A stretch of DNA of 64,000 nt, taken from the NCBI GenBank assembly GCA_002134785.1, contig MBQZ01000103.1, forward strand, positions 26,865-90,864, read 5' to 3'. Under the pieces are notes generated by a model. The model ran no database searches. It saw only the letters and a list, made by a program, of their open reading frames with translations, and was not told the DNA's origin. This DNA is from Crenothrix sp. D3. GTDB lineage: Bacteria > Pseudomonadota > Gammaproteobacteria > Methylococcales > Methylomonadaceae. Both the position numbers and the translations under genes were made by a program. Shown piece after piece: positions 2,881 to 20,816 of this stretch (position 1 is the stretch's first letter; each line of letters begins with the position of its first letter).

Positions 2881-2950
2881 TTAACTCAGCGTTGATTTCA
2901 GGTGTTTTCAATTTCATGACAGTTTGCATTGGTTTGTAGGAACTATCCCA

Positions 2951-3349: not shown

Positions 3350-4298
3350 GCGTATCGGCGTGTTTCTTCAAGCCTCTAGGTAAAGAGAAAACCACTTTTT
3401 CTTCAATACCTTGAATCTCAACAGTTGATGTACCACCCCATATTTTTAACTGCTCTATTACTTCCTGCACTAATACTTCTGGAGCGGATGCACCTGCGGT
3501 TACACCAACAACAGTCACGCCATCAAACCACTCTAACTGCATATCTTGTGCAGTATCAATCAGATAGGCAGTTCTACCCAGCTGTTCAGCAATTTCGCGT
3601 AACCGATTTGAGTTTGAACTATTAGGTGAGCCAACCACCAAAATAATTTCTGCCGATTTAGCCAGTTCATAGACTGCATCTTGACGATTTTGGGTTGCAT
3701 AACAAATGTCGTCTTTTTTCTGTTCTTGAATCGAGGTAAACCGTGTTCTTAAAGCATCAACCATGATTTTTGTATCAGTCATGGATAAGGTAGTTTGTGT
3801 GACATACGCCAGATTATTCGGATTATGTACCACCAATTTTTCTACATCCGCAGGCGTTTCCACTAAATAAATACCGCCATTTTCAGTGCATTTTTCGTAC
3901 TGCCCCATCGTGCCTTCGACTTCGGGATGACCCGCATGACCGATTAAAATCACTTCGCGATCAGATTTTGCGTGTTTTGCAACTTGAATATGGACTTTAG
4001 TGACTAACGGGCAAGTGGCATCAAACACCGTTAATTGGCGTTCTTTGGCTTCTTGTTGAACTTGTTTAGACACACCGTGCGCACTGAAAATAAGGTAAGA
4101 ACCGACGGGGACATCGGTCAAATCTTCAATAAAAATCGCGCCTTTTTCTTTCAGACCATCGACCACGGTGCGGTTATGTACCACTTCATGACGTACATAA
4201 ATCGGCGCACCAAAAGCTTCAATGGCTTGATCGACTATTTCAATAGCGCGGTCAACACCAGCACAAAATCCACGAGGGTTAGCGAGTAAAATTTTCAT
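3336..4298 (-). CDS. ispH: 4-hydroxy-3-methylbut-2-enyl diphosphate reductase
   Basis: N-terminus '[22 protein letters not shown]', 320 aa, with the conserved Cys/His pattern of IspH/LytB. Confidence 0.95.
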
Positions 4299-4527
4299 AT
4301 CTTGACTTATTAAGTTGGTTATTTATAAATGCGGTTATTCTAACCCAACAAGACGACCACTGCCATTAAGTTGTCTTCATTGCCTAATCCATGGGCTAAC
4401 GCTACGCGCTATTGTTAATCAAGCATGACGTTACTAATTTTTGATTTACCCGATAAAAAATATCTTGAGCTAATAGTGTCTTAGGCGTACAAAACGCTCT
4501 CTTCAACCTCTTTTTTCTTTAACTGCA

Positions 4528-6018: not shown

Positions 6019-6065
6019 AGAATGCCATACTCCTTACAACGATATAATTAACAATAGTAACTACC

Positions 6066-6770
6066 ATGAACTGCATCACGCAAAAAACCATTTTAATTGT
6101 TGAAGATGAAGCCAAACTTGCCAGCTTACTGAGTGAATACCTAGCTTTAGCGGATTATGCCACGCATATTATCGCCGATGGTTTAGCAGTCGTGCCGTGG
6201 CTACGCACGCACTCTGCTGATTTGATTGTGCTTGATTTAATGCTACCGAATCGAGACGGCATTGAATTGTGCCGCGATATACGTCAATTTTCTAATGTCC
6301 CCATTATCATGACTACCGCGCGTATTGAAGAAATTGACCGTTTATTAGGTTTAGCCTTAGGCGCGGATGATTATATTTGTAAACCCTATAGCCCACGCGA
6401 AGTGGTGGCGCGTATTAAAGCGGTGTTGCGCCGCATTAATCCAGAACAACAACCTACCATCATACCCAGCACGCCAGAGTTACTCTCTTTAGATCCCCTC
6501 AGTTATCGCGTCAGTGTCGGTAAACAAAGCATCAGCTTATCGACTATTGAATTTATGCTACTCAACACCCTACATCAAGAACCCACACGGCTGTTCTCTC
6601 GTAATCAACTCATGGATAATATTTATAGCGACCAGCGCGTTGTGCTAGATAGAACGGTGGACAGCCATATCAAAAAACTGCGCAAAAAACTCACCGTATT
6701 ATTGCCTGATTATGAGCTGATTCATGCGATGTATGGCGCGGGGTATTGTTATGAAGCGCGGTTGAAGTAG
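6066..6770 (+). CDS. OmpR-family response regulator (receiver plus winged-helix)
   Basis: 'ILIVEDEAKLA...DLIVLDLMLP' receiver and C-terminal 'VDSHIKKLRKKL...GAGY' trans_reg_C motif. It lies adjacent to the kinase gene. Confidence 0.9.
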   Translation: MNCITQKTILIVEDEAKLASLLSEYLALADYATHIIADGLAVVPWLRTHSADLIVLDLMLPNRDGIELCRDIRQFSNVPIIMTTARIEEIDRLLGLALGADDYICKPYSPREVVARIKAVLRRINPEQQPTIIPSTPELLSLDPLSYRVSVGKQSISLSTIEFMLLNTLHQEPTRLFSRNQLMDNIYSDQRVVLDRTVDSHIKKLRKKLTVLLPDYELIHAMYGAGYCYEARLK

Positions 6771-6800
6771 GCTATTTAGGTCTAGGGGAAATGTACTTTA

Positions 6801-6826
6801 GGAGTACAAACCTAGGCTTATACTCC
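6801..6826. terminator. Degenerate copy of the 26-nt palindrome GGAGTACAAACCTAGGTTTGTACTCC, between convergent genes
   Basis: 'ggagtacaaacctaggcttatactcc'. The perfect copy is at 63022-63047. Confidence 0.4.
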
Positions 6827-6853
6827 AATCAATCTATTCTTAATGACTGCTAT

Positions 6854-7252
6854 TTAATCCAGTAAATCGGGGGGGATATTACCGCCATTTTCTGCGAGTT
6901 TTCTTAATACAGTTTTATGTAACCACATATTCATCTGCGCGGAATCACTCATTTTCCCCGCTGGACAGCCCAATTCTGCCGCTAGTTCTTTACGCACAGT
7001 CAAACTACTATCCAATTTCAGCAACTTTAACAAATCGACGATAGACGTTTTCCAATTCAGTTTTTCTGCGTGGGCAGCGGCTAAGTCTGTCAATTTAGCG
7101 ACCACATCAACCTCAACCGCGTTAGCATTGACAACGACAGGTGCTTGGCTAACGGCTTCTTCTACAGGAGCTGATGCAGCTTGCTCAATGACTTCATCAG
7201 CGGCGGCACTGCTGATACCGAGTGTTTCGAAAATGGAGCTAAATATACTCAT
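6854..7252 (-). CDS. DUF3597-like protein
   Basis: The 'MSIFSSIF...' N-terminus, an Ala/Val-rich linker and a conserved C-terminal 'LNWKTSIVDLLKLLKLDSS...MNMWLHK' resemble DUF3597 proteins (from memory). Confidence 0.6.
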   Translation of the reverse strand: MSIFSSIFETLGISSAAADEVIEQAASAPVEEAVSQAPVVVNANAVEVDVVAKLTDLAAAHAEKLNWKTSIVDLLKLLKLDSSLTVRKELAAELGCPAGKMSDSAQMNMWLHKTVLRKLAENGGNIPPDLLD

Positions 7253-7322
7253 GGTTGTTCCTCAATGTTAAAGTGAAATGTGAAATATTTTGCATAGCGC
7301 GTGGAAACTATAACATTGAATA

Positions 7323-7352
7323 GAAAAAACGGGCGAAGATACTCCGCCCGTT
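7323..7352 (-). terminator. Rho-independent terminator downstream of the smbP-like gene
   Basis: Hairpin acgggcg(7329-7335)/cgcccgt(7345-7351), followed on the minus strand by a T-run. Confidence 0.6.
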
Positions 7353-7370
7353 TTTAAAAAGCTGTATTAG

Positions 7371-7727
7371 TTATTGTTTACTAGCATTAAGGTGTTCTAC
7401 TCCCGCTTCAGCCGCCTTAGTTGCCGCTGGTGCGTGTCCTAACTCGCCTTCATCAATGGATTTTTGCAATGAATCAGCGGCTGCATCTATGTGAGTTTTT
7501 GGTACACCTTTTGCCACTAAAGAGGCTGATAGCGTATGATTCAACGCCAATTTAGCGTGTTCAACTAAAATAGGCGCGTGTCCCGCCTTACCGTGTACCA
7601 CAGCGGCATGAGCGTGTTCCAACGCGGTATTAACGTGTTCTACTCCCTTGTCACTCAATCCTGCGGCAAAAACGGTTGTGCTTGCACACAGTAATAAACC
7701 TGCAAATACAGATGCTAATTTTTTCAT
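7371..7727 (-). CDS. Periplasmic His-rich small metal-binding protein (SmbP-like)
   Basis: Signal peptide 'MKKLASVFAGLLLCASTTVFA'. Repeated 'HA..A..HGK.GHA' helices rich in His. ATG at 7725-7727 follows 'aagggga'. Confidence 0.6.
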   Translation of the reverse strand: MKKLASVFAGLLLCASTTVFAAGLSDKGVEHVNTALEHAHAAVVHGKAGHAPILVEHAKLALNHTLSASLVAKGVPKTHIDAAADSLQKSIDEGELGHAPAATKAAEAGVEHLNASKQ

Positions 7728-8004
7728 GTTCTTCCCCTTAAGTATGATTTTGATTATCAAATGTTGATACCACTTTACTTGAGATAACTGTGACCACTAA
7801 CATGAAGTGGCAAACTAATGGCTCAACGTTCGCATTGTAAACACTATTGAATTTATTTTGCAAATGACTGATTAATCTAATATCTGCTCTCCACATTTAT
7901 TCCCTAATAGATTCCTTTTTCGTCCTTATTTGTTACACAATTTACCCGTATCTTATGACCCATGAGCAACAGCAACGGTTGCGCAACAACACAAGGAGAA
8001 GGTA

Positions 8005-8250
8005 ATGAAAAATACATTGTTAGCATCAAAACGACTGGCATTGTCAGAAAGTGGCTTTGTTTTTGATCCTGTGTCAGGGCAGAGCTTTTCCGTTAATGAG
8101 TCGGGGCTGGTGTTTCTGCGTTTAGCGCAACACGAAGATGACCTCGATAAACTCACCACACAACTGGTTGAACAATTTGATGCCAGCAGCGTAGAAATTA
8201 AACGTGATGTGCAGGATTTTATTAATCGCCTGCAAGGATTTTTAAAATGA
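8005..8250 (+). CDS. PqqD-family protein (RiPP-recognition-element-like peptide chaperone)
   Basis: 81 aa. 'GFVFDPVSGQSFSVNESGLVFLRL...DLDKLTTQLVEQFD...IKRDVQDFINRLQGFL' follows the PqqD/PF05402 pattern. Its stop overlaps the next start (ATGA). Confidence 0.65.
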   Translation: MKNTLLASKRLALSESGFVFDPVSGQSFSVNESGLVFLRLAQHEDDLDKLTTQLVEQFDASSVEIKRDVQDFINRLQGFLK

Positions 8251-9311
8251 GCATCACGGTCGCCGTTACAGGCATGAATGCCCGCGCAGATAATCCAGGA
8301 CCTGGTTTAGCCATCGCACGGTGTTTAAAAGAATCCAACACGCCCACTCGCGTGGTCGGTTTGGGTTATGAAGCATTAGACCCCGCGTTATATCACCGTG
8401 GTTTTGTCGATAGAGGTTATTTACTGCCCTACCCTTCACACGGTGAAGATGCTTTATTAGCGCGAGTGTGTGAACTCCATGAACGGGAAAAATTCGACGT
8501 ATTAATTCCCTGTTTAGATGCAGAAATGCAAAGTTTTGCACGGCTCGCACCAACCTTAGCAGGCATGGGCATTCGTACTTTTATTCCTAATAGCCATCAA
8601 TTAGCCTTGCGCAGTAAAGACCGTTTACCCGAATTGGCAAAAGAAATCGGCATTGCATCGCCCAAAACCCAAGCCATTTATCAAGCGAACTTTTTTCACA
8701 GCTGTCAAAGCCAAGACTGGCAGTATCCGCTGATGGTTAAGGGTTTATTTTATGATGCCAAAATCGCTTATAACGCAGAGGAAGCTGTCGCGGCATTTCA
8801 CCGTATAGCAGGTGAATGGGGCGTTCCCGTGTTGGCGCAAAGCTGGATTGGTGGTGAAGAGATTAATCTGGCGGGTGTCGGTGATGGTGAAGGCGGTTTA
8901 GCGGGTGCAGTGATGATGAAAAAACGCGCCCTGACCGATAAAGGAAAAGGTTGGGCAGGTATTAGCATTCATGATGAAGAACTACTTGCTGCCGCCCAGA
9001 AATTTTGTGCAGTTACTAAATGGCGCGGCGGTTTAGAGCTGGAAATGTTGCGCGATACCCAAGGCGGTCTGCATTTAATTGAAATTAATCCCCGTTTTCC
9101 CGCGTGGATTTATTTATCCGCAGGCGTGGGCTGTAACTTACCTGAACTGTTGGTCAAACTAGCATTAGGTGAAAAATTAATCCCCTCGACACCGACACCC
9201 GCAGGCGTGCTGTTCATTCGCTATGCCGAAGAAGCCATTGTGTCATTAGCTGATTTTGAAAATATAACCGTGTGGGGCGAGACGCTACGCACAGAAGGAG
9301 CATTCGCATGA
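8247..9311 (+). CDS. ATP-grasp carboxylate-amine ligase, substrate unknown
   Basis: 'PLMVKG', 'EEINLAGVGDGEG' and 'LELEMLRD...LHLIEINPRFPAW' (E-x-N Mg/ATP motif), 354 aa. Confidence 0.75.
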   Translation: MSITVAVTGMNARADNPGPGLAIARCLKESNTPTRVVGLGYEALDPALYHRGFVDRGYLLPYPSHGEDALLARVCELHEREKFDVLIPCLDAEMQSFARLAPTLAGMGIRTFIPNSHQLALRSKDRLPELAKEIGIASPKTQAIYQANFFHSCQSQDWQYPLMVKGLFYDAKIAYNAEEAVAAFHRIAGEWGVPVLAQSWIGGEEINLAGVGDGEGGLAGAVMMKKRALTDKGKGWAGISIHDEELLAAAQKFCAVTKWRGGLELEMLRDTQGGLHLIEINPRFPAWIYLSAGVGCNLPELLVKLALGEKLIPSTPTPAGVLFIRYAEEAIVSLADFENITVWGETLRTEGAFA

Positions 9312-10693
9312 AAAATATCACCACTAAAAACCCGTGGGTCGCCCCTGTCATAGTTCGTCATGCGTCTAGCGGCATGAATAAATTCGGTGGGGTGCGTGAT
9401 GCGCAATTTCGCGATGAAATTGCTGGTGTGTCGATTGCCGAACTGGTAGAAAAATACGGTTCGCCGCTGTTCGTGTTATCGGAAGAACATTTACGCCAAT
9501 CGGTGCGCCGTATTAACCGCGCTTTTACCACCCGCTATGCCAAAGTGCGCCAAGCGTGGTCGTATAAAACCAATTATATCAACGCGGTCTCCGCCATTTT
9601 GCACCAAGAAGGCTGTGATGCCGAAGTGGTGTCTGAATTTGAATACGACAAAGCCCGCCGTTTAGGTGTGCCTGCGTCGCGGATTTTCTTTAATGGCCCC
9701 TATAAATCACGCGGTGCATTAACCAAAGCGGTGAGCGAAGGGGCGCGAATTCATGTTGACCATTTGGACGAACTAGCATTATTAGAAGAAGTCGCGGCTG
9801 AACTGGGCATTTTGAACTTCCCGATTACCATTCGCTTGAACTTTGATACAGGCTTTGCGGAAAACTGGGGACGCTTTGGGTTTAACTTAGAAAACGGGCA
9901 GGCAATGGAAGCGGCGCGGCGTATTGCCGCCAGTCCCAATTTAAAACTCACAGGGCTGCATAATCATATCGGCACGTTTATCACTGACCCGCGTGCTTAT
10001 ACCGCGCAAGTCGGCATCATGATTAATTTTATGAACAATGTGGAAGCGGCGACTGATTGCACCATCACCACGCTGGATATAGGCGGCGGTTTTGCCTCGC
10101 GTAATGCCATGCAGGGCGTGTATTTACCGCCTGAACAAATTACCCCCACCGCTGAGCAATACGCCGAAGCGATTTGTGGCGCGTTAGCGATTGGCTTAAA
10201 AGACCGTGAACAACACGGCAAGCCGTTACCCGAATTAGTGTTAGAAACAGGTCGCGCGGTAGTCGATGAAGCGGAATGGCTAATTTCCAGCGTGGTGGCG
10301 AATAAACGCCTGCCGACTGGGCAACGCGCTATGGTGCTGGACGCAGGCGTGAATATTTTATTCACCGCGTTTTGGTATAACCACGAAGTACGCCCTGCGC
10401 GTCCTGTGGAAGGTATCCCCGAAGACACCGTGTTGTATGGCCCGTTGTGTATGAACATTGATGTGGTGCGTCAATCAGTGAGTTTGCCGCCGCTGAAAAC
10501 AGGCGATTTATTGTCGTTTTGGCCTGTCGGTGCTTATAACAATACCCAGTGGATGCAGTTTATTCAGCTCCGCCCTGCGGTGGTCATGGTGCGACAAAAC
10601 GGACAGGTGGATGTAGTGCGCCGCGCGGAAACGCTGGATGATGTGGAAGAACCTGAACGCTTGCCAGCGGATTTGCAACCTGATTTTTCTTAG
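9308..10693 (+). CDS. PLP-dependent decarboxylase, Orn/DAP/Arg decarboxylase (alanine-racemase-fold) family
   Basis: 'GSPLFVLSEEHLR', 'AWSYKTNY' (PLP lysine context), 'LDIGGGF' and 'ETGRAVV' motifs. ATG at 9308 overlaps the upstream stop (ATGA). Confidence 0.8.
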   Translation: MKNITTKNPWVAPVIVRHASSGMNKFGGVRDAQFRDEIAGVSIAELVEKYGSPLFVLSEEHLRQSVRRINRAFTTRYAKVRQAWSYKTNYINAVSAILHQEGCDAEVVSEFEYDKARRLGVPASRIFFNGPYKSRGALTKAVSEGARIHVDHLDELALLEEVAAELGILNFPITIRLNFDTGFAENWGRFGFNLENGQAMEAARRIAASPNLKLTGLHNHIGTFITDPRAYTAQVGIMINFMNNVEAATDCTITTLDIGGGFASRNAMQGVYLPPEQITPTAEQYAEAICGALAIGLKDREQHGKPLPELVLETGRAVVDEAEWLISSVVANKRLPTGQRAMVLDAGVNILFTAFWYNHEVRPARPVEGIPEDTVLYGPLCMNIDVVRQSVSLPPLKTGDLLSFWPVGAYNNTQWMQFIQLRPAVVMVRQNGQVDVVRRAETLDDVEEPERLPADLQPDFS

Positions 10694-10699
10694 CCACTT

Positions 10700-10770
10700 G
10701 TAGGGGCAATCCCTTGTGGTTGACCTGATAACGACCTATTCACAGGGCTGGCACAAGGCACAGCCCCTAC
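10700..10770. repeat. Palindromic intergenic repeat, family R1 (GTAGGGGCAATCCCTTGTGGTTG...GGCACAGCCCCTAC)
   Basis: Near-identical copy at 44271-44332. The termini are inverted repeats gtaggggc/gcccctac. Confidence 0.8.
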
Positions 10771-10828
10771 TTTTAGGCTTAACTTAATGGCGACGCTGCG
10801 TGTGGAAACGAGAAATAAAGAATTAACC

Positions 10829-12961
10829 ATGATGACATCACATTCAATCAAAGTTTTTTGCCAACACTTAGCCCAAGGTTACGCGTGGATATTACTCATG
10901 CCCTCCACTCGTGCTGGCGTGGTACTGATAATGGCAACCTTCGCCACGCCCAACATCGCTATCATCGGTTTATTAGGTGCGAGTTTCACATTATTGAGCG
11001 CACGCGGCTTGCGTGTCACCGAGGGCTTGTCGGCGGTTTATGTGTTTAATGGGCTATTAACAGGCTTGTTTCTTGCCGCGCATTATCAAACTACAGTGCA
11101 TCTCTTATTGTTGCTGGTCTTTGCAAGTGTATTAGTTGCCTTAATAACCCATAGCGTTGCGGGCGTATTGTGGCGATTTTCTCAATTGCCTGTATTGAGT
11201 TTGCCGTTTGTCTTGGCGGCGTGGCTGGCGCAACTGGCAGGAACGAGTTACGGCAATTTATTACCTATTGCTGATGCTAGCCATCTGTCTACCGATTGGA
11301 TAGATACTTTTTTTACTAGCTTGGCGAGCATCTTTTTTCAGCCTAATCCGTACTTGGGTGGCGTGTTATTTATCACACTGTTCATCACTTCGCGCACTTT
11401 GGCTTTTTTAGCGGTGTTGGGATTTTTGGCAGGTGTCGGGTGGCACACACTGTTCACGGGTAACGTGGCAGTTTATGTTGCACCGAATTGGATTTTTAAT
11501 TCAATGTTAGCGGCAATGGCAACAGGTGGATTATTTGTCGTTCCCAGTGTTGGCGGTTTGTTATTAGGCACGGTGGCAGCGTTGTTAGCAGCATTATTAG
11601 CGGCGGCACTCAGTCAATGTTTATTGCCTTTTGGTTTATCGCCGTTAGCCTTGCCGTTTTTACTGTCAACGTGGCTGTGTTTGTACACGGCACAACGCTC
11701 TGGAAAACCTGCGTTAGTCGGTGAACGCGTGCAGTTACCCGAAAAATCCTTAGAAGATGGTCGCTTAGCCCGCACACGGCTGGGTAATCCTGCCAGTGTG
11801 GCGTTGATTCCGCCGTTTATGGGAACATGGCAAGTATCACAAGGACGCGATGGCGAACATACGCACCGTGGATTGTGGCGTGATGCGCTGGATTTTATTG
11901 TCACCGAAGACGGGCAGAGTTTTCATGGTAATGGGCTAGTCGTTGAAGATTTTTTCTGTTTTGGTTTGCCGATAGTCTCACCTTGTTATGGGCAGGTAGT
12001 GCAACTACAAAATAATGTGCTTGATAATGCGATTGGTGAAGTGAATTTACGCGAAAACTGGGGCAACTATGTAGTCATCCGTTTGTATGAGGGTGTTTAT
12101 GTATTATTGGCACATTTACGCTATAACAGCCTCAGTGTCACTGTCGGCGATTGGCTAAAAACAGGGCAAGCAGTGGCACAATGCGGTAATTCAGGACGTT
12201 CACCACAACCGCATTTGCATTTTTCGGTGCTACGTCATGCGACACCCGAAGCGGAAACCCGCCCGTTTCATCTCATCGGTGTGTTATTACAAGCCGAAAA
12301 AAACAATGCCGTTTTTCATCTATGGGCAAATCCTCAACAAAACGACAAAGTCACCGCAGCGTGGTTTGGTGCAGTGCGCCCTTTATCATTGCGGGTCGGT
12401 TTAGGACGCAGTTATCGAGTGCGCGTGAATGGCGGGCAATGGCAATCGTGGCAACTGACTCCGCAACTCAATTTAGCAGGGCAGTTTTTGTTAGTGTCTG
12501 AGTCAGGCGCGAGTTGTTGTTGTGAAGAAAATGGTGCGGTCTTTGCTTGTTATGGGCGCGAAGGCGGCGCAGATGTGTTTCTTGATTTATGGCTATTAGC
12601 GGTCGGTTGCACGCCGTCTTCTGAACACGCGAAACAATGGCGCGATAGCCCGCCAACGCGCTTATTACCCAGCCGCTGGCGGTGGTTGAGTGCGTTATTA
12701 GCCCCTTATGCCACGCAAATCAACGCCCACTATGCTCGCAGTTTTGATGATGCGGCGCGAGTATGGCGACAAACAAGTACGCTTTTCTTATTGGGTAAAC
12801 AAGTGATGACCATTGAAACGGCGATTGTTGCTAATAATGGACTTACTTATTTATTAGCAAATAGCGCGGGGCAACGCTGGGAAATGATACTGGAAGGTGC
12901 GTTTCAAACGGGCGATACGGGTGTTCCTGAACGTGAATGGGCGATAGACACGAACATTTAA
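10829..12961 (+). CDS. Fusion membrane protein: N-terminal urea-transporter-like polytopic domain, M23 (LytM) metallopeptidase domain and an unknown C-terminal region
   Basis: About 300 aa of hydrophobic helices. Then 'HTHRGLWRDALDF' (HxxxD) and 'GNSGRSPQPHLHFSV' (HxH), the M23 motifs. The start is uncertain (10787 or 10829). Confidence 0.6.
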   Translation: MMTSHSIKVFCQHLAQGYAWILLMPSTRAGVVLIMATFATPNIAIIGLLGASFTLLSARGLRVTEGLSAVYVFNGLLTGLFLAAHYQTTVHLLLLLVFASVLVALITHSVAGVLWRFSQLPVLSLPFVLAAWLAQLAGTSYGNLLPIADASHLSTDWIDTFFTSLASIFFQPNPYLGGVLFITLFITSRTLAFLAVLGFLAGVGWHTLFTGNVAVYVAPNWIFNSMLAAMATGGLFVVPSVGGLLLGTVAALLAALLAAALSQCLLPFGLSPLALPFLLSTWLCLYTAQRSGKPALVGERVQLPEKSLEDGRLARTRLGNPASVALIPPFMGTWQVSQGRDGEHTHRGLWRDALDFIVTEDGQSFHGNGLVVEDFFCFGLPIVSPCYGQVVQLQNNVLDNAIGEVNLRENWGNYVVIRLYEGVYVLLAHLRYNSLSVTVGDWLKTGQAVAQCGNSGRSPQPHLHFSVLRHATPEAETRPFHLIGVLLQAEKNNAVFHLWANPQQNDKVTAAWFGAVRPLSLRVGLGRSYRVRVNGGQWQSWQLTPQLNLAGQFLLVSESGASCCCEENGAVFACYGREGGADVFLDLWLLAVGCTPSSEHAKQWRDSPPTRLLPSRWRWLSALLAPYATQINAHYARSFDDAARVWRQTSTLFLLGKQVMTIETAIVANNGLTYLLANSAGQRWEMILEGAFQTGDTGVPEREWAIDTNI

Positions 12962-12988
12962 CTTTAATCAAAATAGGTTATAAAAATA

Positions 12989-13876
12989 ATGAAAAAAAAC
13001 ATAATGCTGTTGTGCTGTACGACTGTACTGGCAAGCTCACTGACGCACGCCAGTGAAGCATGGAAAGTAAATACAGCGGCTCAAGGTACTTATTTAGGTT
13101 ATTCAAACTCACAGTATCGTGACTCACTGCATGAAGAAGGCGCGGTGGTATCGGCTGATTATTTAGATGAAGGCGGAGTCACTGCGGGTTATACGCACAC
13201 TGAACTGACGCTTAAAAATAATCAACCTAGACTTGATCAAAATTCTTATTTTTTATCCGCGCGTAAACATTTTTACATTGACGAACTGGCTGGGAAAATC
13301 ACGCTACGCGCTGATGGGCATTTTATTGATAACACCGACCCTAGTAATGATACCGATGATGTCAGTGTCGGTGCTACTCAAGCCAGTTATCTCAGTAATA
13401 ATAAAAAATATTATGCTGATTTTGGTTATGCCTACAGTCATTATCAAAATAATCTCCATGTTAGCCAATACACGCCCACTGTCGGCGTTGGTGTGTTTGA
13501 TGGTGATGGTTGGTTGCAATTACGCGGTTATTTTATTGAAACGTCCAACCCAGAACGCGCTCAAGGCTTAAGTTCCACGCAAGCCGCAGAAATTAAATAT
13601 ACCCATTGGCTTACGCCTGACGGACTGTTTAAACCCAGTAATTTACAAATCGGCGGCTTAGTGGGTAGACGTTTTTATGCCGTCGATATGGATGCGGGTA
13701 CGGTGGCTAACTTAGCCGATGTACAAACAGGCGGTATCACGACAGGGGCAGAATGGAAGGTAAGCGAACATGGCAAGGTATTATTACTAGGAGGCAATAA
13801 TTTTTATAAAAATAGAACCGCAAGCGACAGTTACTCAGGGGCGTTTGGTTATCTGAATGCTAGCGTTGTTTGGTAA
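12989..13876 (+). CDS. Putative outer-membrane beta-barrel protein
   Basis: Signal peptide 'MKKNIMLLCCTTVLASSLTHA', alternating amphipathic strands rich in Y/G, and a C-terminal aromatic residue '...NASVVW'. Confidence 0.5.
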   Translation: MKKNIMLLCCTTVLASSLTHASEAWKVNTAAQGTYLGYSNSQYRDSLHEEGAVVSADYLDEGGVTAGYTHTELTLKNNQPRLDQNSYFLSARKHFYIDELAGKITLRADGHFIDNTDPSNDTDDVSVGATQASYLSNNKKYYADFGYAYSHYQNNLHVSQYTPTVGVGVFDGDGWLQLRGYFIETSNPERAQGLSSTQAAEIKYTHWLTPDGLFKPSNLQIGGLVGRRFYAVDMDAGTVANLADVQTGGITTGAEWKVSEHGKVLLLGGNNFYKNRTASDSYSGAFGYLNASVVW

Positions 13877-13906
13877 TACACTCATCAATTCACAGAGAAA
13901 AATACA

Positions 13907-14515
13907 ATGAAAAAAATAAAATTGGTACTTTTATTGACAGGATTATTGGCGACATCGTGGGCTTATGCAGACAATGAAGCCGCGTGGACCAGCTCTTACA
14001 GCTTAGAAGCAACTAAAAAATATGCCGATGCACTCGCTGCATTGAATGGAATATCAGCCAGTGGTGACGATGCACAATTATTATTATTGCGTCAAGGTTG
14101 GCTCACTTATTTACAAGGGCAATACAGTGAATCCGTTCAGCATTACCAAGCCGCCATGCAACAAAATCCTAAATCCATAGATGCTGCATTAGGTATGACA
14201 TTACCGCTACTAGCACAACAACGTTGGCAAGAAGCCGCCGTTCACGCTAAAGAGGTATTGAATGCCTCGCCTAACCAATACACGGCTTATTTACGGCTGA
14301 TTGTTGCTGAAGAAGGCGCGAAGGATTGGTCAGCAATGAAAAAACACGCGGAAGAATTAACGCAACATTACCCAACTGATACCTCGGCTTTTGTGTATTT
14401 AGCGCGGGCGTATGCGTGGTTAGGAGATAAAGAAGCGGCTAAAAAAGCCTATACTGCGGCGTTAAGTCGAATGCCTAAACATTATGAAGCGACGGCTTAT
14501 TTAGCTAAACTATAA
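13907..14515 (+). CDS. Periplasmic tetratricopeptide-repeat protein
   Basis: Signal peptide 'MKKIKLVLLLTGLLATSWAYA' and several TPR-like 'W..A...Y..AL...P' units. Confidence 0.65.
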   Translation: MKKIKLVLLLTGLLATSWAYADNEAAWTSSYSLEATKKYADALAALNGISASGDDAQLLLLRQGWLTYLQGQYSESVQHYQAAMQQNPKSIDAALGMTLPLLAQQRWQEAAVHAKEVLNASPNQYTAYLRLIVAEEGAKDWSAMKKHAEELTQHYPTDTSAFVYLARAYAWLGDKEAAKKAYTAALSRMPKHYEATAYLAKL

Positions 14516-14525
14516 GTCGTAGATT

Positions 14526-14559
14526 GCACTCCCAACAAATATGATTTTGTTGGGAGTGC
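14526..14559. terminator. Bidirectional hairpin terminator (14-bp perfect stem)
   Basis: gcactcccaacaaa (14526-14539) pairs with tttgttgggagtgc (14546-14559), with a 6-nt loop. It sits between the TPR gene stop and the orphan speA 3' fragment. Confidence 0.7.
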
Positions 14560-14568
14560 CATTGACCG

Positions 14569-14683
14569 TTATTTTTCCAAATAAGTATAAGCGGTTAATC
14601 CCGCTAGTAGTTCTTGTTCATAATCATGCTGGTCTTTGCGCCTGAGCTGGCTTTTCACTAGCTTTTCACGGTTGGCGATTTTT
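14569..14683 (-). pseudogene. Orphan duplicate of the last ~38 codons of speA
   Basis: 115 bp, ~93% identical by eye (8 mismatches) to 18978-19092. It encodes '...REKLVKSQLRRKDQHDYEQELLAGLTAYTYLEK*' versus the SpeA C-terminus '...REKLVNSQLSRKDQHDYEQELLAGLTAYTYLEK*'. Confidence 0.85.
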
Positions 14684-14725
14684 GATAGTCCATACAAACC
14701 AAGGAACTGGATTGGTTTGTAGGAA

Positions 14726-15118
14726 CTATCGTTCAAGCAATGTAAATTGTGTTTGTTCATAAAATAAACTCATAATGCGCCAACCCTGTTCAGTTTGTGC
14801 CACAACTAATACATCCAAGCCTTCACGTTGTTCTCTATCGGCAATCAGCAAATAGTTCGCTTTGATAATAGCGATTTCACCCTGTTGTTGAACGGATACT
14901 TCAGACCACGTTTCTGTAAACACTTTCGCCTGCAACGCGTATGTTTGTTGCTCTTTAACGCAGTCATTCAAACCAAATACTTCGACTTGAGCATTTTTTT
15001 CTAGTCGAACAATGTTTGCGGTTTCATGAAATAACGCTCGCCAGCCAACGAAATTTTTTTGTGTGAGATACAATGGATAGTGCTGTGCAATCAATTGAGG
15101 AGTATTTAAGTTAACCAT
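14726..15118 (-). CDS. Small protein of unknown function, possibly NTF2-like/SnoaL-like (weak call)
   Basis: 130 aa, no signal peptide, with an alpha+beta pattern ending 'GWRIMSLFYE'. The call rests on size and pattern only. Confidence 0.35.
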   Translation of the reverse strand: MVNLNTPQLIAQHYPLYLTQKNFVGWRALFHETANIVRLEKNAQVEVFGLNDCVKEQQTYALQAKVFTETWSEVSVQQQGEIAIIKANYLLIADREQREGLDVLVVAQTEQGWRIMSLFYEQTQFTLLER

Positions 15119-15258
15119 TTGATTTACTTATAAAATTGTCGCTTTATTTTATGTAAATTTTTTTGCTTACCAAGCAGAAAATATTCAATGCGCGGCGAGA
15201 TAAGTAGCTGACCATTTTTTAACTGTTAGCTATAGCTAACCTAATCTATGCAGCTGTC

Positions 15259-16239
15259 TTAAATGGAATCCATGTATTCTCTGGCTGATTTCATCACCGA
15301 TAAACCCGTGGGGGTTAAATCTCCATACTGCTTAACCACACTGTAACCTGCTTCAAAGTTTTTCTGATCCCGAAGCATTGCAGACTCGGCATATAAGTGA
15401 TCTGAATCATTCAGTACACCACTGGCAAGTAGTTTAGACATTGCCCAGTGCATTCGAGCAGAAACATAAGTTGCGTGGTAGATACCATCCATTGGACGCG
15501 AATCAACGCGCAACGGTGATTGGTAAAGCGTGTCATCATCGTTATTGACCAGAGCTTCATCACTGGCAAAACCAAAAAGTAGTATGTGCGCACTTTCGTG
15601 AGCCATTACTTCTATTAAAGCAACTTCGTTTTCATGGGAGGAGGCATTAAGAAAGAGACCACCCCAAAGCATATAAGAAGAGCCACCATCAAACTGGTAT
15701 TCTGCTGTGGAGTCCCCCTCTACCATGATGATTTGACTTACCAGCGCGTCAAATTCTGCTGCCAGTTCAGGGATTGCAGCACTTAGTAAACGATAACTGC
15801 GTTCAAGCCGTTCACGAAAGCATGACGCAGTCTTTGGAGTTGGTGAAAAAATTTCAAATCTAGCGAGGGGATCTGCGTCCATTAGATTAATGTAACGCGC
15901 AACATGGGCAGTGAGCTTGGCATCATCGAGGGCTAATAATTGCCAGTTTTTATCTTGTGGACGTTCTTGTACTAATTCTTTGAGTAATTGTGTGGCACTA
16001 TCGATGTTATCGCTGTCCAATGCCAGCACTAATTCGGTGTAGATGGCAAACGTTGAAGGGGGAAACTTGTCACCTTGATTTAATCCTGTAATCAACTGAG
16101 TCATTGCCTTGGTGTCGAAGTCAATTTGACCATTAATTTGAGTCGCTATGTAGTCTAAGCTTTCAGCCAGTGAACAACGCATTCTGCGATTTATTGCTTT
16201 AGCACGAATCCCACAAGGGGGGAATTTGAAATCAATCAT
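15259..16239 (-). CDS. HExxH-motif protein; resembles the 'HEXXH motif domain'/alphaKG-HExxH peptide beta-hydroxylase family, or alternatively a metallopeptidase
   Basis: 'GGSSYMLWGGLFLN', 'EVMAHESAHILLFG', 'SPLRVDSRPMDGIYHATYVSARMHW'. Confidence 0.55.
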   Translation of the reverse strand: MIDFKFPPCGIRAKAINRRMRCSLAESLDYIATQINGQIDFDTKAMTQLITGLNQGDKFPPSTFAIYTELVLALDSDNIDSATQLLKELVQERPQDKNWQLLALDDAKLTAHVARYINLMDADPLARFEIFSPTPKTASCFRERLERSYRLLSAAIPELAAEFDALVSQIIMVEGDSTAEYQFDGGSSYMLWGGLFLNASSHENEVALIEVMAHESAHILLFGFASDEALVNNDDDTLYQSPLRVDSRPMDGIYHATYVSARMHWAMSKLLASGVLNDSDHLYAESAMLRDQKNFEAGYSVVKQYGDLTPTGLSVMKSAREYMDSI

Positions 16240-16316
16240 AAGAAGAGAAAGCTAAAATAAAGACTTGTCAATTGAGGGGGAGGGGTAATATTTTAGATTT
16301 AACTTTAAAATTACTG

Positions 16317-16362
16317 ATAAAAAACCGCTGCTGGGAGCACAAATAATGTCGCCCAGCAACGG
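16317..16362 (-). terminator. Rho-independent terminator/attenuator just downstream of the repeat-peptide gene
   Basis: On the minus strand, 'ccgttgctgggcgacattatttgtgctcccagcagcgg' is followed by 'ttttttat'. Confidence 0.6.
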
Positions 16363-16383
16363 CTAACAAATGGCTTTTTAGTA

Positions 16384-16608
16384 TTAAACGTCTGGACCAG
16401 TTTTCATGGGGGACGGTACTTTACCAATTTTCGGACTCAGAACAACAGACGGTACTTTACCAATTTTCGGACTCAGAACAACAGACGGTACTTTACCAAT
16501 TTTCGAACCCAGAACAACAGGTAGTTGCTGTTGACTAAGAGAGTGGCTGGCGATTTTAAAACCATAAAGTTTGGATGGGTCAAGATTGATTTTTTTGTTG
16601 GTATTCAT
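16384..16608 (-). CDS. 74-aa peptide with three tandem 12-aa repeats (VVL[GS][SP]KIGKVPS); candidate precursor/substrate peptide
   Basis: ORF with 'aaagga' 10 nt upstream of the ATG. The repeats are encoded by a 3 x 36 bp tandem DNA repeat. It lies between the ATP-grasp and HExxH genes on the same strand. Confidence 0.55.
   Translation of the reverse strand: MNTNKKINLDPSKLYGFKIASHSLSQQQLPVVLGSKIGKVPSVVLSPKIGKVPSVVLSPKIGKVPSPMKTGPDV
16413..16520. repeat. Tandem repeat, 3 x 36 bp, in-frame within the small ORF
   Basis: Units at 16413-16448 and 16449-16484 are identical ('gacggtactttaccaattttcggactcagaacaaca'). The third (16485-16520) differs at 2 positions. Confidence 0.95.
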
Positions 16609-16638
16609 TTGAGCTGATTCCTTTACGTTCAGTTTAGT

Positions 16639-18498
16639 TTAGTTTAGTTGAGTTGGCAGTGTATATTCATTAAGTAGTCGGGTCAATTCGTTGTAGCGAG
16701 TTTTCGATGCTCTATTGTGATTATTCCAATCTTTAATTTCATTATTCACAACTGTGATTTTATCGATTTTATCGATAGGCAAACCACAATGCAGAAACTC
16801 ATCGGTTTGAATGACCAAGAGTATAGCCTCCACCGTTCTATTCATTAGCAAGGCTATAGTTCTGTCAAACAAGCTCTGTGTATTAAGTATAAGTTGCTCA
16901 CCGAATGGCAATAAAGTCAGCTCGTGACTGCTCAGGTAACATTTGACTCCTTCTGCTGTCATTTTCTGCTGACGCTCTTTAGCAATATCAAGCGCGGCAT
17001 CACCACCAACAAAAACTTCCACAGGAATTCTGCCATCATCACTTAGAATTCTGTCGATATAGATGGGGCGATACGGTTTACTGAGTTCTGCTATAAAAGT
17101 AGGTGAAAAATTGATTTCATTGATGACCGCTCCATTTTCATGCCACGGCTGGCTAATATCTACAGACATAAGATCAACGCCAGCGGTTGATAAACCAAAC
17201 AGAGCCGCCGCTCTAATGGTAATGTCCACATTATCAGGATGAATAATTTTTGTAGCTTCTTCAGCTATCCCGCCCCATTCAGTAGACTCAACTTTTCTGA
17301 GAGGGAGAAACTGCCCTTCTTGTGAAAAACTATCAAGTGTCATGCCCACGCTCGCTAAATTTTCCACTGCCATCGCATCAGTCGGGAATGGCTTACTCCT
17401 TTTCCATGGTAATTTTACATTTTCCTTGGCGTTGGCAATGGCAATCAATTCTGCGACCGTGTGAATGCCATCACCTGTCACTGACTTGGGTATTCTTTTA
17501 AAGGCATACAGCAATTCACCACCTGAAATAAATATCCGATGACACACGCCCAATATGTGACGCTCGACCAGCACTGAGGTTGCTTTTGTCAGTTTAACGG
17601 CTAAGTTAAATGCCTCAATGAGTGTTTTTTCATCATTGACATCAATCGTTATACCTTCACCCCGATTCAAATCCAATGGTTTTACTACCACTGGCCAGCC
17701 GATAATTTTCGCTGCGTCAATTGCTTCTTTTTCGGTACTTACCATAATGTGCTGAGGTGCAGGGAGTCCTGCTGCTCGCATCACGGATGCTGAAATGAAT
17801 TTATTATTGCTCAGTTTTGCGCCTATTAACGAATCAGCTTCTGTCGTCGATATTTGAATCAGTTTCAATTTATGCCCCCAGCCAAGTTGGTAGCAACCAT
17901 CTCCGAGATGGCGAAACGGAATTTTCTTATCATAAACAGCTATCAATATAGGCAATGTGGATTTACCAGTTGCTATTTTTTTAGACATTGGCTTTATAAA
18001 TGACTTATCGATTTCATCAAGCAGGGTGTGCAGATATTCACTACTGTGTTGGTTTTTAACAGCATTAACAATAATCTGTAGTGCAACCCAATAAGCCGTT
18101 TTAGTGACATCAGCTGGCATAGAGTCAATAAAAGGTATCGCGGTTACTACAGTGAACTGGCTGGCATTTTGATCGGCTGCACTGACCTTTAGAACCCGCC
18201 CCGCATCAAAAGCAGGTATTTTTACCCCTTGAAGTAAGCGGCTTGTCAAATGCAAAATGCGCCAAACCAGTTCAACAATCATTTTTTCACAAGACCCATC
18301 TTGATACTGTTCCGACGCACCGCAGGGGACTAGAGCAATTTCAAAGGTATTTATTAACCAATCGTCGATTGCTTTAAAATCAACTTGATCAAGACGCGAA
18401 ACATTGAATGTCAGTAACGTGGCTGGTTGCGACATTCCATAATTATAGCCAAATGAGGGCGATTGAATTATCGGGTGATTAGATTTTGTGGTTTCCAT
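16639..18498 (-). CDS. Cyanophycin-synthetase-like ATP-grasp enzyme (N and G domains only; no Mur-ligase-like M domain)
   Basis: 'GWPVVVKPLDLNRGEGITIDV', 'VLVERHILGVCHRIFISGGELLYAFKRIPKSVTGDGIHTVAELI', 'IHPDNVDITIRAAALFGLSTAGVDLMSVDISQPW...AVINEINFSPTF'. These parallel the CphA ATP-grasp motifs (from memory). The protein is 619 aa versus ~870-900 aa for CphA. Confidence 0.75.
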   Translation of the reverse strand: METTKSNHPIIQSPSFGYNYGMSQPATLLTFNVSRLDQVDFKAIDDWLINTFEIALVPCGASEQYQDGSCEKMIVELVWRILHLTSRLLQGVKIPAFDAGRVLKVSAADQNASQFTVVTAIPFIDSMPADVTKTAYWVALQIIVNAVKNQHSSEYLHTLLDEIDKSFIKPMSKKIATGKSTLPILIAVYDKKIPFRHLGDGCYQLGWGHKLKLIQISTTEADSLIGAKLSNNKFISASVMRAAGLPAPQHIMVSTEKEAIDAAKIIGWPVVVKPLDLNRGEGITIDVNDEKTLIEAFNLAVKLTKATSVLVERHILGVCHRIFISGGELLYAFKRIPKSVTGDGIHTVAELIAIANAKENVKLPWKRSKPFPTDAMAVENLASVGMTLDSFSQEGQFLPLRKVESTEWGGIAEEATKIIHPDNVDITIRAAALFGLSTAGVDLMSVDISQPWHENGAVINEINFSPTFIAELSKPYRPIYIDRILSDDGRIPVEVFVGGDAALDIAKERQQKMTAEGVKCYLSSHELTLLPFGEQLILNTQSLFDRTIALLMNRTVEAILLVIQTDEFLHCGLPIDKIDKITVVNNEIKDWNNHNRASKTRYNELTRLLNEYTLPTQLN

Positions 18499-18732
18499 TT
18501 AATTATGTCTGTGTTCGTTACCAATAGTTTGGATAGTTTTTAGAAAAGAGGAAAAACTTAAATTTAGAGGGTAATGTAGTTACCAATAAATAACGACCTT
18601 AAAAGAAAGATTTCCATGATGCGACTAGAAATGATTTCAGGGTGGATTAAAAATCTCACAGCTTAGAAAAATCAAGGTACTCAAAAATAAGAACAATAGA
18701 TATAGCTAACCGTCAATAAAATGATTACAAAA

Positions 18733-18836
18733 CCGTTCGCACTGAGCTTGTCGAAGCCTGTCATGAGCTTGTCGAATGGTGTGAATGTGGTTCGACAAGG
18801 CTCTCCTGAGTTTAGCGAAGGACTCACCACGAACGG
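18733..18836. repeat. Palindromic MITE/REP-like repeat, family R2 (CCGTTCGC.CTGAGC.TGTCGAA...CTCACCACGAACGG)
   Basis: Related copy at 60602-60707. Termini ccgttcg/cgaacgg are inverted. Outer inverted flanks are 'caataaaatgat'/'atcattttattg'. Confidence 0.8.
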
Positions 18837-18977
18837 TATCATTTTATTGTATTATTGTACGTTAGCTCTATAACCCACTACCGAAAATTTTAAATTTTCT
18901 AGTGACTTTTTTCAAATTTATATGTAGAGAATCTTACACATCTTTAACAACCTTTTCACTTGTTTCAGTAGTCATGG

Positions 18978-20816
18978 TCATTTTTCCAAATAAGTATAAG
19001 CCGTTAATCCCGCTAGTAATTCTTGTTCATAATCATGCTGGTCTTTGCGACTGAGCTGACTATTCACTAGCTTTTCACGATAGGCGATTTTTAATTCTTC
19101 GGTGCTGATATGCACATAATCCAATAAATCAGCGACATTTTCACCTTTGTGCAAATCGTAAAAATGGTAGCCGTTATCATCGAGTTCGATATTAATCGAA
19201 TGGGTATCACCAAACAAATTGTGCATATCGCCTAAAATTTCTTGATACGCACCCAGCATAAAAAACCCAATAAGATACGGCTGTTCGCTATCAATAGCAT
19301 GAATGGGTAGCGTGTGTTCGATATTCTGACCATCAATATATTGGTCAATACGTCCGTCGGAATCACAGGTTAAATCCTGTAATACAGCGCGACGTGTTGG
19401 CTGTTCATTCAAGCGATGAATCGGCATAATGGGGAAAATTTGATCAATCCCCCAGACATCGGGCAGTGATTGAAACAGCGAGAAGTTACAAAACACTTTA
19501 TCTGCCAATTTTTCATCAAGTTCTTGCAAAATGGTCGCTTCGCTTTGATTCGTTGGATTAAGTTGATTTTTAATCTGCTGACAGACCAGCGCGTAATTAT
19601 TTTCAGCAGCCGCTAAGCCATCAATGCTTAATTTATCTTGGGTAAATTGAGTTCGCGCTTCAAACAGTGAGAACTGGGCATTGTGATAATGTTCCGTTAA
19701 ATTCGCGACACTGGGTAACGCTAATAACTCGGCTTCATTGCTGTAAACGGATTCCACATCGGTGACATTGGTGATAAGTACCGCGTGATGCGCAGTCAAC
19801 GCTCTGCCTGATTCGGTAATAATATTCGGTTGCGGCAGTTCTTTTTCTGCACAAATATCGGCAAAACTGCGAACTATATTTTGCGCGTATTCATCCAAAC
19901 TGTAATTAATCGACGATTCACGGCGTGAGCGGCTACCGTCATAATCCACCCCTAAACCACCACCTGCATCAACAATTTTTATGTCCGCGCCCAAACGATG
20001 TAATTCAACATAAAACTGCCCTGCTTCTTTGAGTGCGATTTTAATGTCATGAATATTGGCAATTTGCGAACCCATGTGAAAGTGCATGAGCTTCAGCGTA
20101 TCTAATAAATCCGCTTGTTTTAGACGGTCAATCAGTTGCAATACTTCGTGAGCATGAAAACCGAATTTGGATTTTTCGCCGCCGCTGTTTTGCCATTTAC
20201 CCGCGCTGATACTGGATAAACGAATCCGCACGCCTAATTGTGGCTTTACATTGAGCTTTGCCGCTTCTTCAATAATGAGTTCGAGTTCGAGTGGTTTTTC
20301 AATGACTAGATATAAATCTAAGCCCATTTTCAAACCAATCAACGCGAGGCGAATATAAGCGCGGTCTTTGTAACCATTGCAAATAACTACACCTTTTTTA
20401 GATAACGCCATAATGACGAGTAATTCAGGTTTACTACCTGCTTCCAAACCAATATTATCTGCCGCTAAAATGCCTTCCACGACTTTGCGTTGTTGATTGA
20501 CTTTAATGGGATAAACAGGCGTGTAACTGCCTTGATAATTGTGTTGCACACAGGCTTTAGCAAAGGCGTTTTGTAAGCGTTTCACACGGTCTTTTAAAAT
20601 ATCCGTAAAACGCACTAACACGGGTAGCGACAACTGCTTGTCATTAAGTGATAGAGCTATCTCATATAAATCTAACTCAGTTGCTTGTTCTGAACTGGGT
20701 TTAACGCAGACATGACCTTTATCATTAATGGAAAAATAACCATCACCCCAGTTGTCGATGGCGTAAGTTTGTGCTGATTGCTGGATTGTCCACGTTGGGT
20801 TGGTGCTTGAATTCAC
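18978..20816 (-). CDS. speA: Biosynthetic arginine decarboxylase
   Basis: 612 aa. 'WGDGYFSIN', 'YPIKVNQQ' (PLP lysine), 'GGGLGVDYDG' and the conserved C-terminal region. Confidence 0.95.
   Translation of the reverse strand: MNSSTNPTWTIQQSAQTYAIDNWGDGYFSINDKGHVCVKPSSEQATELDLYEIALSLNDKQLSLPVLVRFTDILKDRVKRLQNAFAKACVQHNYQGSYTPVYPIKVNQQRKVVEGILAADNIGLEAGSKPELLVIMALSKKGVVICNGYKDRAYIRLALIGLKMGLDLYLVIEKPLELELIIEEAAKLNVKPQLGVRIRLSSISAGKWQNSGGEKSKFGFHAHEVLQLIDRLKQADLLDTLKLMHFHMGSQIANIHDIKIALKEAGQFYVELHRLGADIKIVDAGGGLGVDYDGSRSRRESSINYSLDEYAQNIVRSFADICAEKELPQPNIITESGRALTAHHAVLITNVTDVESVYSNEAELLALPSVANLTEHYHNAQFSLFEARTQFTQDKLSIDGLAAAENNYALVCQQIKNQLNPTNQSEATILQELDEKLADKVFCNFSLFQSLPDVWGIDQIFPIMPIHRLNEQPTRRAVLQDLTCDSDGRIDQYIDGQNIEHTLPIHAIDSEQPYLIGFFMLGAYQEILGDMHNLFGDTHSINIELDDNGYHFYDLHKGENVADLLDYVHISTEELKIAYREKLVNSQLSRKDQHDYEQELLAGLTAYTYLEK

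Follow-up and report, generated by a model that had tools for sequence, protein, structure and literature searches.

A duplicated speA gene end beside an acquired RiPP-like cassette in Crenothrix sp. D3: a possible scar of one-sided recombination

The speA locus and its duplicated end

We analysed a 64,000-nucleotide stretch of the genome of Crenothrix sp. D3 (assembly GCA_002134785.1, contig MBQZ01000103.1, positions 26,865 to 90,864 of the forward strand; hereafter the window), in which the 3' end of speA, the gene for biosynthetic arginine decarboxylase, is present twice. One copy (copy A) is the end of an intact speA, while the other (copy B, the orphan) stands alone next to a convergent gene for a TPR protein. 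Between them lies a cassette resembling the gene clusters for peptides that are ribosomally synthesised and then modified post-translationally (RiPPs). All four of its genes are on the minus strand and, read from speA, the order is a spacer, an ATP-grasp ligase gene, a peptide gene, a hydroxylase gene and a gene for an NTF2-like protein (Table 1). An initial annotation, made from the sequence alone, had noticed the repeat and explained it by an integrative element that carries a replacement 3' end for its target gene.

The repeat is real: a single such family was found, 119 nt long and 92% identical, with a spacing of 4409 nt. The eight mismatches counted in the initial annotation correspond to 8 differences within 114 coding bases, and its estimate of some 38 shared codons comes down to the last 37 codons plus the stop. 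Three of the eight differences are nonsynonymous (Y>N, N>K and S>R), and another switches the stop codon (TGA versus TAA). The homology between the copies has sharp limits, reaching exactly to the foot of a hairpin (hp1) on one side and to the stop codon plus 1 nt on the other. A supposed third speA fragment at 2668 was discarded, as its similarity ends after ~14 nt.

Table 1. Features of the locus, in window coordinates (X, a dispersed short repeat; HK, histidine kinase; ORF, open reading frame)
Feature	Position	Strand	Basis or remark
Two more X copies, inverted orientation, just 3' of hslR	2605-2626(+), 2924-2947(-)		sequence similarity
Short X doublet	2605-2666		followed by AAAAATCGCC, 5 nt from outer end
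ispH-hslR with about 60 nt upstream of ispH	2951..4357	-	L097 homology
Conserved 10-kb block, HK to TPR	4528..14515	+	synteny with L102
Hairpin hp2, between orphan and convergent TPR gene	14523..14562		14-bp perfect stem, -24 to -26 kcal/mol
Repeat copy B, orphaned 3' fragment of speA, 37 codons + TAA, predicted non-functional	14568..14686	-	repeat alignment
Junction palindrome hp1, inverted doublet of repeat X	14684..14730		19-nt arms 14684-14702/14712-14730, 9-nt loop
NTF2/lumazine-binding-like small protein, 130 aa	14726..15118	-	PF12893 E=3e-4, slightly short of cut-off
aKG-HExxH-type peptide hydroxylase, 326 aa	15259..16239	-	TIGR04267 E=3e-28, above cut-off
Precursor-like peptide, 74 aa, OTE95105.1	16384..16608	-	three 36-nt (12-aa) repeats KIGKVPSVVLSP at 16412-16519
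Cyanophycin-synthetase-like ATP-grasp ligase, 619 aa	16639..18498	-	NF010623 E=4e-71, profile positions 117-573 of 871
speA-cassette spacer, 479 nt	18499..18976	-	no ORF >53 aa
Palindromic dispersed element, ~150 nt, within spacer	~18700-18860		fold z -5.3
Promoter-like site in spacer	18915-18887	-	TTGAAA-17-TAAAAT, 10/12
Repeat copy A, 3' end of functional speA, last 37 codons + TGA	18977..19095	-	repeat alignment
speA, intact biosynthetic arginine decarboxylase, 612 aa	18978..20816	-	NF003763 E=6e-247; TIGR01273 E=3e-237

Recurrence in independent assemblies

The initial annotation had itself cautioned that the duplication might be an assembly artefact, that is, a collapsed or chimeric join at repeated sequence, and short-read contigs do break inside the locus, at the 36-nt repeats of the peptide gene and at the palindromic element of the spacer. 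Nevertheless, the identical gene order is found in the ENA assembly ERZ27287886, in the NCBI metagenome-assembled genome GCA_044426855.1 and in Logan contigs of five sequencing runs. The ENA and NCBI sequences (L081 and L082) are 100% identical to the window except for one 36-nt repeat unit, and both junctions are present in all three of these independent long assemblies. Logan contigs from four runs (L086-L089) span the segment from the TPR gene through hairpin hp2, the orphan and hp1 to the NTF2-like gene at 100% identity; the fifth (L090), also 100% identical, ends within the orphan. The inner junction is also present in L091, a relative at 94.5% identity. Protein accessions assign the sequence to Crenothrix sp. 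D3 or to a Methylococcales metagenome-assembled genome nearly identical to it. Since the arrangement recurs in independent assemblies and in a diverged relative, we reject an assembly artefact, which these data effectively refute.

Gene order around speA in relatives

Our reference for gene order was L097, the closest relative with a long contig among those compared; closer speA sequences are P0275 (MSP26977.1, 98% identical, on a 37-kb contig) and P0274 (on a 1951-nt JGI contig). Its speA, 95% identical to that of the window in amino acids and 86% in nucleotides, is followed by an 84-nt spacer, ispH and hslR. Homology to the window breaks off 8 nt after the speA stop codon (window 18970) and picks up again at 4357, with L097 11864-13271 matching window 4357-2950 at 87%. 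Compared with L097, the window carries about 14.6 kb of extra DNA between speA and ispH, and not 4.4 kb. Besides the cassette, this extra DNA holds a 10-kb block of genes encoding a histidine kinase, a response regulator, a DUF3597 protein, a 129-aa ORF, PqqD, ATPgrasp_Ter, a pyridoxal phosphate (PLP) decarboxylase, a urea-transporter/M23 fusion, a 295-aa protein and the TPR protein. In the relative L102, positions 378-10605 are colinear with window 4528-14508, and in L102 and L103 the block adjoins amtB-glnK. The same genome as L097 has, on another contig (L101), the stretch from a 118-aa ORF to the TPR gene, again beside amtB-glnK.

Because L097 has speA next to ispH and its TPR block elsewhere, the junction of speA with the TPR gene is not ancestral, and the proposal of the initial annotation that the orphan, its hairpin and the TPR gene represent the original end of speA has to be abandoned. 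The comparison puts the orphan precisely where the cassette meets a translocated chromosomal block of 10 kb. An empty speA-TPR site, which the initial annotation had suggested looking for, was found neither among the 80 closest speA loci of GTDB nor among the closest speA relatives and the TPR relatives, and a wobble-tolerant DNA pattern for it gave 0 matches in JGI metagenomes; the loci of P0275 and P0274 lay outside this comparison. TPR, kdsD or any cargo gene lies beside speA in 0/80 of these GTDB loci, and the cassette is missing from the position behind speA in all relatives compared. In L104, a 95% relative, the contig covers no more than 11 nt of the speA end.

Age and decay of the two copies

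L091 runs through the cassette into the orphan and, since it shares the orphan, the duplication predates the split between L091 and the window. Y, N and S are retained in the L091 orphan at the sites where that of the window has N, K and R, which makes all three substitutions later decay; the divergence is no argument for a foreign replacement end. The orphan is decaying, as seen from these changes in the window and from the 63-aa ORF across it, which is interrupted in L091 and has an extra E>K change in strain P0444. This ORF had been considered as a gene in its own right and was ruled out by the TAG that interrupts it in L091.

Copy A and the reconstructed ancestral state of the orphan are separated by only about 2-3 synonymous changes in 76 nt. 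When aligned with L097, the two copies match at 96 and 95 of 117 nt, respectively, while they match each other at 108/117; both are equally far from every relative compared and far closer to each other. As the copies are mutually closest and equidistant from the relatives, neither is foreign, and any donor was a close relative. Their divergence is just what age alone predicts. No hairpin lies 3' of the copy A stop codon, and the 8 nt past this stop (CCATGACT) agree with those of L097 (CCGTGGCT) at 6/8 positions, a weak argument that the native end is copy A. This is the reverse of the earlier view, in which the copy contiguous with speA had been imported with the insert.

The cassette between the copies

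The ATP-grasp ligase has the N and G domains of cyanophycin synthetase without the Mur-ligase part. In the PDB it matches CphA1 (E=1e-47) as well as 7ta5 and 8fxh (629-642 aa), which are deposited as glutathione synthase and RimK-domain ATP-grasp, and a word-limited search returned ~82 homologues at E<=2.5e-78, most of them full-length. The hydroxylase has 290 cluster representatives at E<=1e-30; its residues H214, E215 and H218 are invariant. The ligase, peptide and hydroxylase genes recur together, at 35-67% identity, in many metagenomic loci (L093, L105-L184). By contrast, the NTF2-like gene is confined to the cassette as it occurs in Crenothrix and absent from all other cassette loci examined. 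The ligase of Ramlibacter and Rubrivivax occurs as a fusion with an AMP-binding enzyme.

Precursor peptides from 15 loci share a conserved leader (..LDxSKLYGFKI..) followed by 2-6 [SA]KIG repeats, and the repeat motifs of their cores contain no Asp or Glu. A conserved leader and a variable core thus stand beside a known tailoring family (TIGR04267), as in RiPP clusters. Membership in the graspetide (omega-ester/amide) class was ruled out, as the core repeats lack Asp/Glu and the ligase is of the CphA type. No description of a CphA-like ligase paired with a Lys-rich [SA]KIG-repeat core was found in the literature searched, and the triad is a possible new RiPP-like class. Within the Crenothrix lineage the 36-nt KIGKVPSVVLSP unit is present in 3 copies in the window (74 aa) and in 2 copies in L081 and L082 (62 aa), the sequences being otherwise 100% identical; the number of core repeats is polymorphic within one population.

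The genes that flank other copies of the cassette vary (M13 peptidase, RIO1 kinase, methyltransferase, ABC-F and, once, an IS3 transposase). Among the ~30 loci examined, none has speA nearby, and the flanking genes scanned in four of them include this one IS3 transposase and no tyrosine integrase; the collections of plasmids and phages searched contain no copy of the cassette. Because the triad recurs in varied contexts, is absent from this position in relatives and is absent from plasmids and phages, we conclude that the two copies enclose an acquired RiPP-like module of patchy distribution. The initial annotation was thus right to regard the cargo, an operon of an ATP-grasp protein and a repeat peptide, as acquired at this place. 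Its proposed check of base composition yielded a mild deviation (GC 0.403 versus 0.427, delta* at the 99.6th percentile) and third-position GC content the same as that of the neighbours, which rules out strong compositional foreignness.

The spacer between speA and the ligase gene has features of its own. Its ~150-nt palindromic element carries the motif GAGCTTGTCGAA, with further copies at 32131 and 60613-60689 and at four places in the relative L002, and the short-read contigs L091 and L092 stop at the edge of this element. The noncoding part just 5' of the ATP-grasp gene (18499-18726) is 98-100% identical in L091 and L092, above the conservation of the downstream coding sequence; L091 lacks 67 nt of the spacer (18634-18700). 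A search of Rfam detected no known RNA family in 14300-19200.

Alleles of the cassette may also have been exchanged. Along window 18726-16491, the identity of L092 (ERR12084952) to the window is 99-100% in the spacer and the initial 470 nt of the ligase gene, and about 75% beyond. The drop is abrupt, lying near window 18030 inside the ATP-grasp gene, and the contig stops short of speA. In L091 the identity is for the most part 97-100%, falling to 86-91% in patches. If the contigs are not chimeric, these mosaics suggest that divergent cassette alleles were exchanged by homologous recombination anchored on the speA side.

It is against this background that the integrative element of the initial annotation must be judged. 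The locus could be a degenerate or satellite element of the type of e14 or phage 21 in icd, whose site-specific integrase would have recombined an element-borne speA end with that of the chromosome and was later lost or always acted in trans: direct repeats of the 3' end of a target gene bracket the cargo, the homology halts at the stop codon with the gene precisely restored, and icd and icdC around e14 show the same anatomy (PMC13626634). Yet, as the initial annotation had stated, there is no integrase or transposase gene between the repeats, whose ORFs are the cargo genes and have no such matches, and four tightly packed genes and a 479-nt spacer leave no room for a remnant. The empty site is missing among the relatives, and the TPR block that would form its distal side is itself a newcomer at this place. 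Furthermore, the cassette is unlinked to speA in the ~30 other loci and to tyrosine integrases in the four whose flanking genes were scanned, so that the search for the same cargo beside an integrase proposed in the initial annotation found no case; it does not occur in the plasmid and phage collections searched, and neither copy of the speA end looks foreign. Taken together, we regard an integrative element as unlikely.

Hairpins and dispersed repeats at the junctions

The orphan is bordered by two hairpins. The first, hp2, was correctly described in the initial annotation as strong (folding z -7.2 and -8.6). It is absent at the TPR loci of the relatives L100-L103 and present in the 95% relative L104, and it is not part of the 10-kb block, because homology to that block stops at the TPR stop codon. 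Its distance from the stop codon of the orphan is the usual distance between stop codon and terminator of speA in relatives.

The second hairpin, hp1, forms the inner junction. The inverted repeat noted there by the initial annotation exists, with arms of 19 nt rather than 9. The arms are 89% complementary (-22 kcal/mol, z -6) and form a perfect 19-bp stem in L091. This palindrome lies at the 3' end of the operon, contains the stop codon of the NTF2-like gene and abuts the orphan with its outer end. It is an inverted doublet of a dispersed repeat of ~25 nt, here called X, with the consensus GATAG[TC][TC]CCTACAAA[CT]CAATGCAG and a family start of (G/A)TAG. In the sequence L046 there is a 154-nt X doublet at 1998-2151, adjoining a 97-aa ORF with a weak match to a Tn5-type transposase DNA-binding domain (E=0.007). 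The spacers within X doublets measure 9 nt, about 20 nt (to the next X copy it is about 300 nt) and about 105 nt, and only three X loci occur within 64 kb. An inverted doublet of a conserved short repeat with dispersed copies is the form taken by repetitive extragenic palindromic (REP) sequences, their REPIN doublets and miniature inverted-repeat transposable elements (MITEs).

The orphan opens with the 10-nt sequence AAAAATCGCC, which directly adjoins hp1 at its outer end and lies 37 codons ahead of the speA stop. The same 10-mer follows the short X doublet near hslR. This link between AAAAATCGCC and X doublets is suggestive and not proven, because the 10-mer is enriched in the window (6 copies versus 0.46 expected).

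These features raise the alternative that a transposase or a REP-associated tyrosine transposase (RAYT) made the junction, with the X doublet of hp1 as the end of a mobile element that the enzyme attached to AAAAATCGCC, its preferred target, within a copy of speA. In its favour, the outer end of the doublet coincides exactly with the junction, the 10-mer recurs next to the outer end of the second doublet, the L046 doublet neighbours the Tn5-like ORF, and L097 has a RAYT gene at the position where the window has X copies. Against this, neither a transposase nor a RAYT was found in the 64-kb window, the REP around the L097 RAYT is a different one, no X-like repeat lies at the speA-proximal end of the cargo, no target-site duplications were seen around the X doublets examined, and the X loci are so few. 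We find this explanation quite improbable, and agree with the initial annotation that the repeated speA end is unlikely to be a target-site duplication of the transposase type. We can also imagine that the X doublet marks an undescribed, integrase-free insertion system, in which an enzyme acting in trans (RAYT-like or other) would attach the doublet by its outer end to AAAAATCGCC-type targets and carry adjacent cassettes into the 3' ends of housekeeping genes, the gene end being duplicated so that the gene survives; this is a speculation to which we assign only a very slight chance.

The RAYT of L097 (13356-14200; NF047646, 98 bits) follows directly after hslR and is flanked by several GGAGTCCAAAACAAGTTTTGGRC copies, with X repeats at the equivalent place in the window. 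X was rejected as the REP of this RAYT, whose REPs are unrelated to X and for which the window has no counterpart. The cargo was likewise rejected as a transposon bounded by terminal inverted repeats, given the missing X-like repeat at its speA-proximal end.

A further alternative is a duplication in situ, in which 119 nt of the nearby speA end would have been copied as templated filler during replication or repair, by template switching or by filling in a long staggered break, while the cassette joined the 10-kb block, after a fold-back that built the palindrome. The orphan does lie exactly at the seam of two unrelated blocks and between two hairpins, the small synonymous distance between ancestral orphan and copy A fits copies that were identical at time zero, and the junction is a perfect palindrome in L091. 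However, the arms of the palindrome belong to a dispersed family that forms doublets elsewhere, which makes an origin by fold-back unneeded; an end of homology at the stop codon is not predicted by a random template switch; and hp2 stands where the terminator of a speA gene would be expected. In our judgement such a duplication is rather unlikely.

A possible scar of one-sided recombination

The explanation that we tentatively favour, while granting it somewhat less than an even chance, is that one-sided homologous plus illegitimate recombination, independent of an integrase, left the orphan behind as a scar without function. Incoming DNA from a close relative would have paired with the chromosome through speA on one side. 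The other side would have been joined illegitimately at AAAAATCGCC, abutting the REPIN/MITE-like palindrome. Such one-sided joining would duplicate the speA end and restore speA precisely. Two blocks, the horizontally acquired RiPP-like cassette and the 10-kb chromosomal block, now stand between speA and ispH-hslR, its former downstream neighbours, in the Crenothrix lineage. We infer this mechanism, and the role of the motif in it, from the anatomy of the locus.

Homology-facilitated illegitimate recombination, another name for this one-sided process, requires only a homologous anchor, here speA, and a short microhomology at the other end. One-sided recombination accounts for the precise restoration of speA, for the end of homology at the stop codon and for the absent recombinase, no gene for which lies in or beside the 4.3 kb. 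Homology that ends at the stop codon and at the foot of the hairpin is what would be expected if two speA-bearing molecules with different downstream DNA had recombined.

Several points weigh against one-sided recombination. No genome with just one of the two blocks was recovered, and it is for this reason that we infer the order of events and the arrangement in the donor. The coincidence of AAAAATCGCC with the doublet was noticed post hoc and involves an enriched 10-mer. An attachment (att) site with a replacement gene end would likewise have its homology stop at the stop codon. Finally, the mosaic structure of L092 could be that of a chimeric short-read (Logan) contig.

If our preferred explanation is correct, the locus is a natural example of a biosynthetic cassette added behind a gene of an essential pathway without a dedicated recombinase, leaving a datable scar. 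It also illustrates that the duplication of a gene end is, by itself, no evidence of an integrative element. The two 119-nt repeats could permit loss of the cassette by ordinary recombination. We believe that the more interesting biology lies in the cargo, an apparently uncharacterised RiPP-like family that combines a cyanophycin-synthetase-like ligase with Lys-rich KIG-repeat peptides, here hosted by an environmentally important lake methanotroph, the methane-oxidising Crenothrix.

Neighbouring genes

On the 5' side of speA the window has a divergent row of kdsD-kdsC-lptC-lptA-lptB-rpoN (from 21012 onward), where the closest relatives have MethyTransf_Reg, HSP20 or adenine deaminase instead. 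Upstream of the speA start, homology to L097 extends for 69 nt (window 20817-20885) and, given the limits of this homology on both sides, speA is a conserved island amid rearranged DNA. Part of the 10-kb block (window 7371-14515) is syntenic in L100-L103 and encodes small ORFs, PqqD, ATPgrasp_Ter, a PLP-dependent Orn/DAP/Arg decarboxylase, the urea-transporter/M23-peptidase fusion, the 295-aa protein without a family match and the TPR protein; this cluster may be another peptide-modification system. Further along, the product of dnaB (window ~28137-28498 and beyond, minus strand; L081 1-362) has a Hom_end_hint Pfam match between two DnaB_C matches, which suggests that it is an intein-containing replicative helicase.

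Comparison with known systems

The element e14 in icd of Escherichia coli is integrated such that icd is kept and an icdC pseudogene remains (PMC13626634). The Crenothrix locus resembles e14 and phage 21 in icd in that a segment lies in the 3' end of a housekeeping gene, a second, slightly different end keeps the gene intact, and an orphan C-terminal fragment is found on the far side. In contrast to e14, which encodes its own integrase and excises, the Crenothrix locus has no recombinase, its relatives do not show the predicted empty site, its distal flank is a translocated block and neither of its copies is foreign-looking.

The inverted doublet hp1, its ~25-nt dispersed repeat and the variable spacers resemble RAYT-associated REP/REPIN doublets and MITEs. 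Unlike these, X has a very low copy number, no cognate RAYT or transposase was found for it, and it lacks target duplications. The cargo, with a leader-plus-core precursor beside a TIGR04267 enzyme, resembles RiPP clusters with aKG-HExxH hydroxylases such as PflC/PosC (PMC12636437), and its ATP-grasp protein matches the G domain of the cyanophycin synthetases CphA1/CphA2. It differs from both in uniting a CphA-like ligase with a Lys-rich [SA]KIG core without Asp/Glu, and is not of the graspetide type.

Arrays of displaced C-termini and orphans at rhs and type VI secretion system (T6SS) loci, for which homology-facilitated illegitimate recombination was proposed (PMC5361080), offer another parallel. 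In the displacement of effector-immunity modules at rhs, contact-dependent inhibition (CDI) and T6SS loci, a new module lies directly behind a conserved upstream anchor gene and the old 3' part is orphaned downstream, without an integrase (PMC5361080). Likewise, in Crenothrix speA is contiguous with the new DNA and its orphan 3' fragment lies downstream. The anchor here is, however, a metabolic gene without a polymorphic toxin domain, and the orphan is only 115 nt long, has no linked immunity gene and reflects a single displacement rather than an array. Within the bounds of our tentative explanation, we take the speA locus to be one more example of a recombination scar of an already known type.

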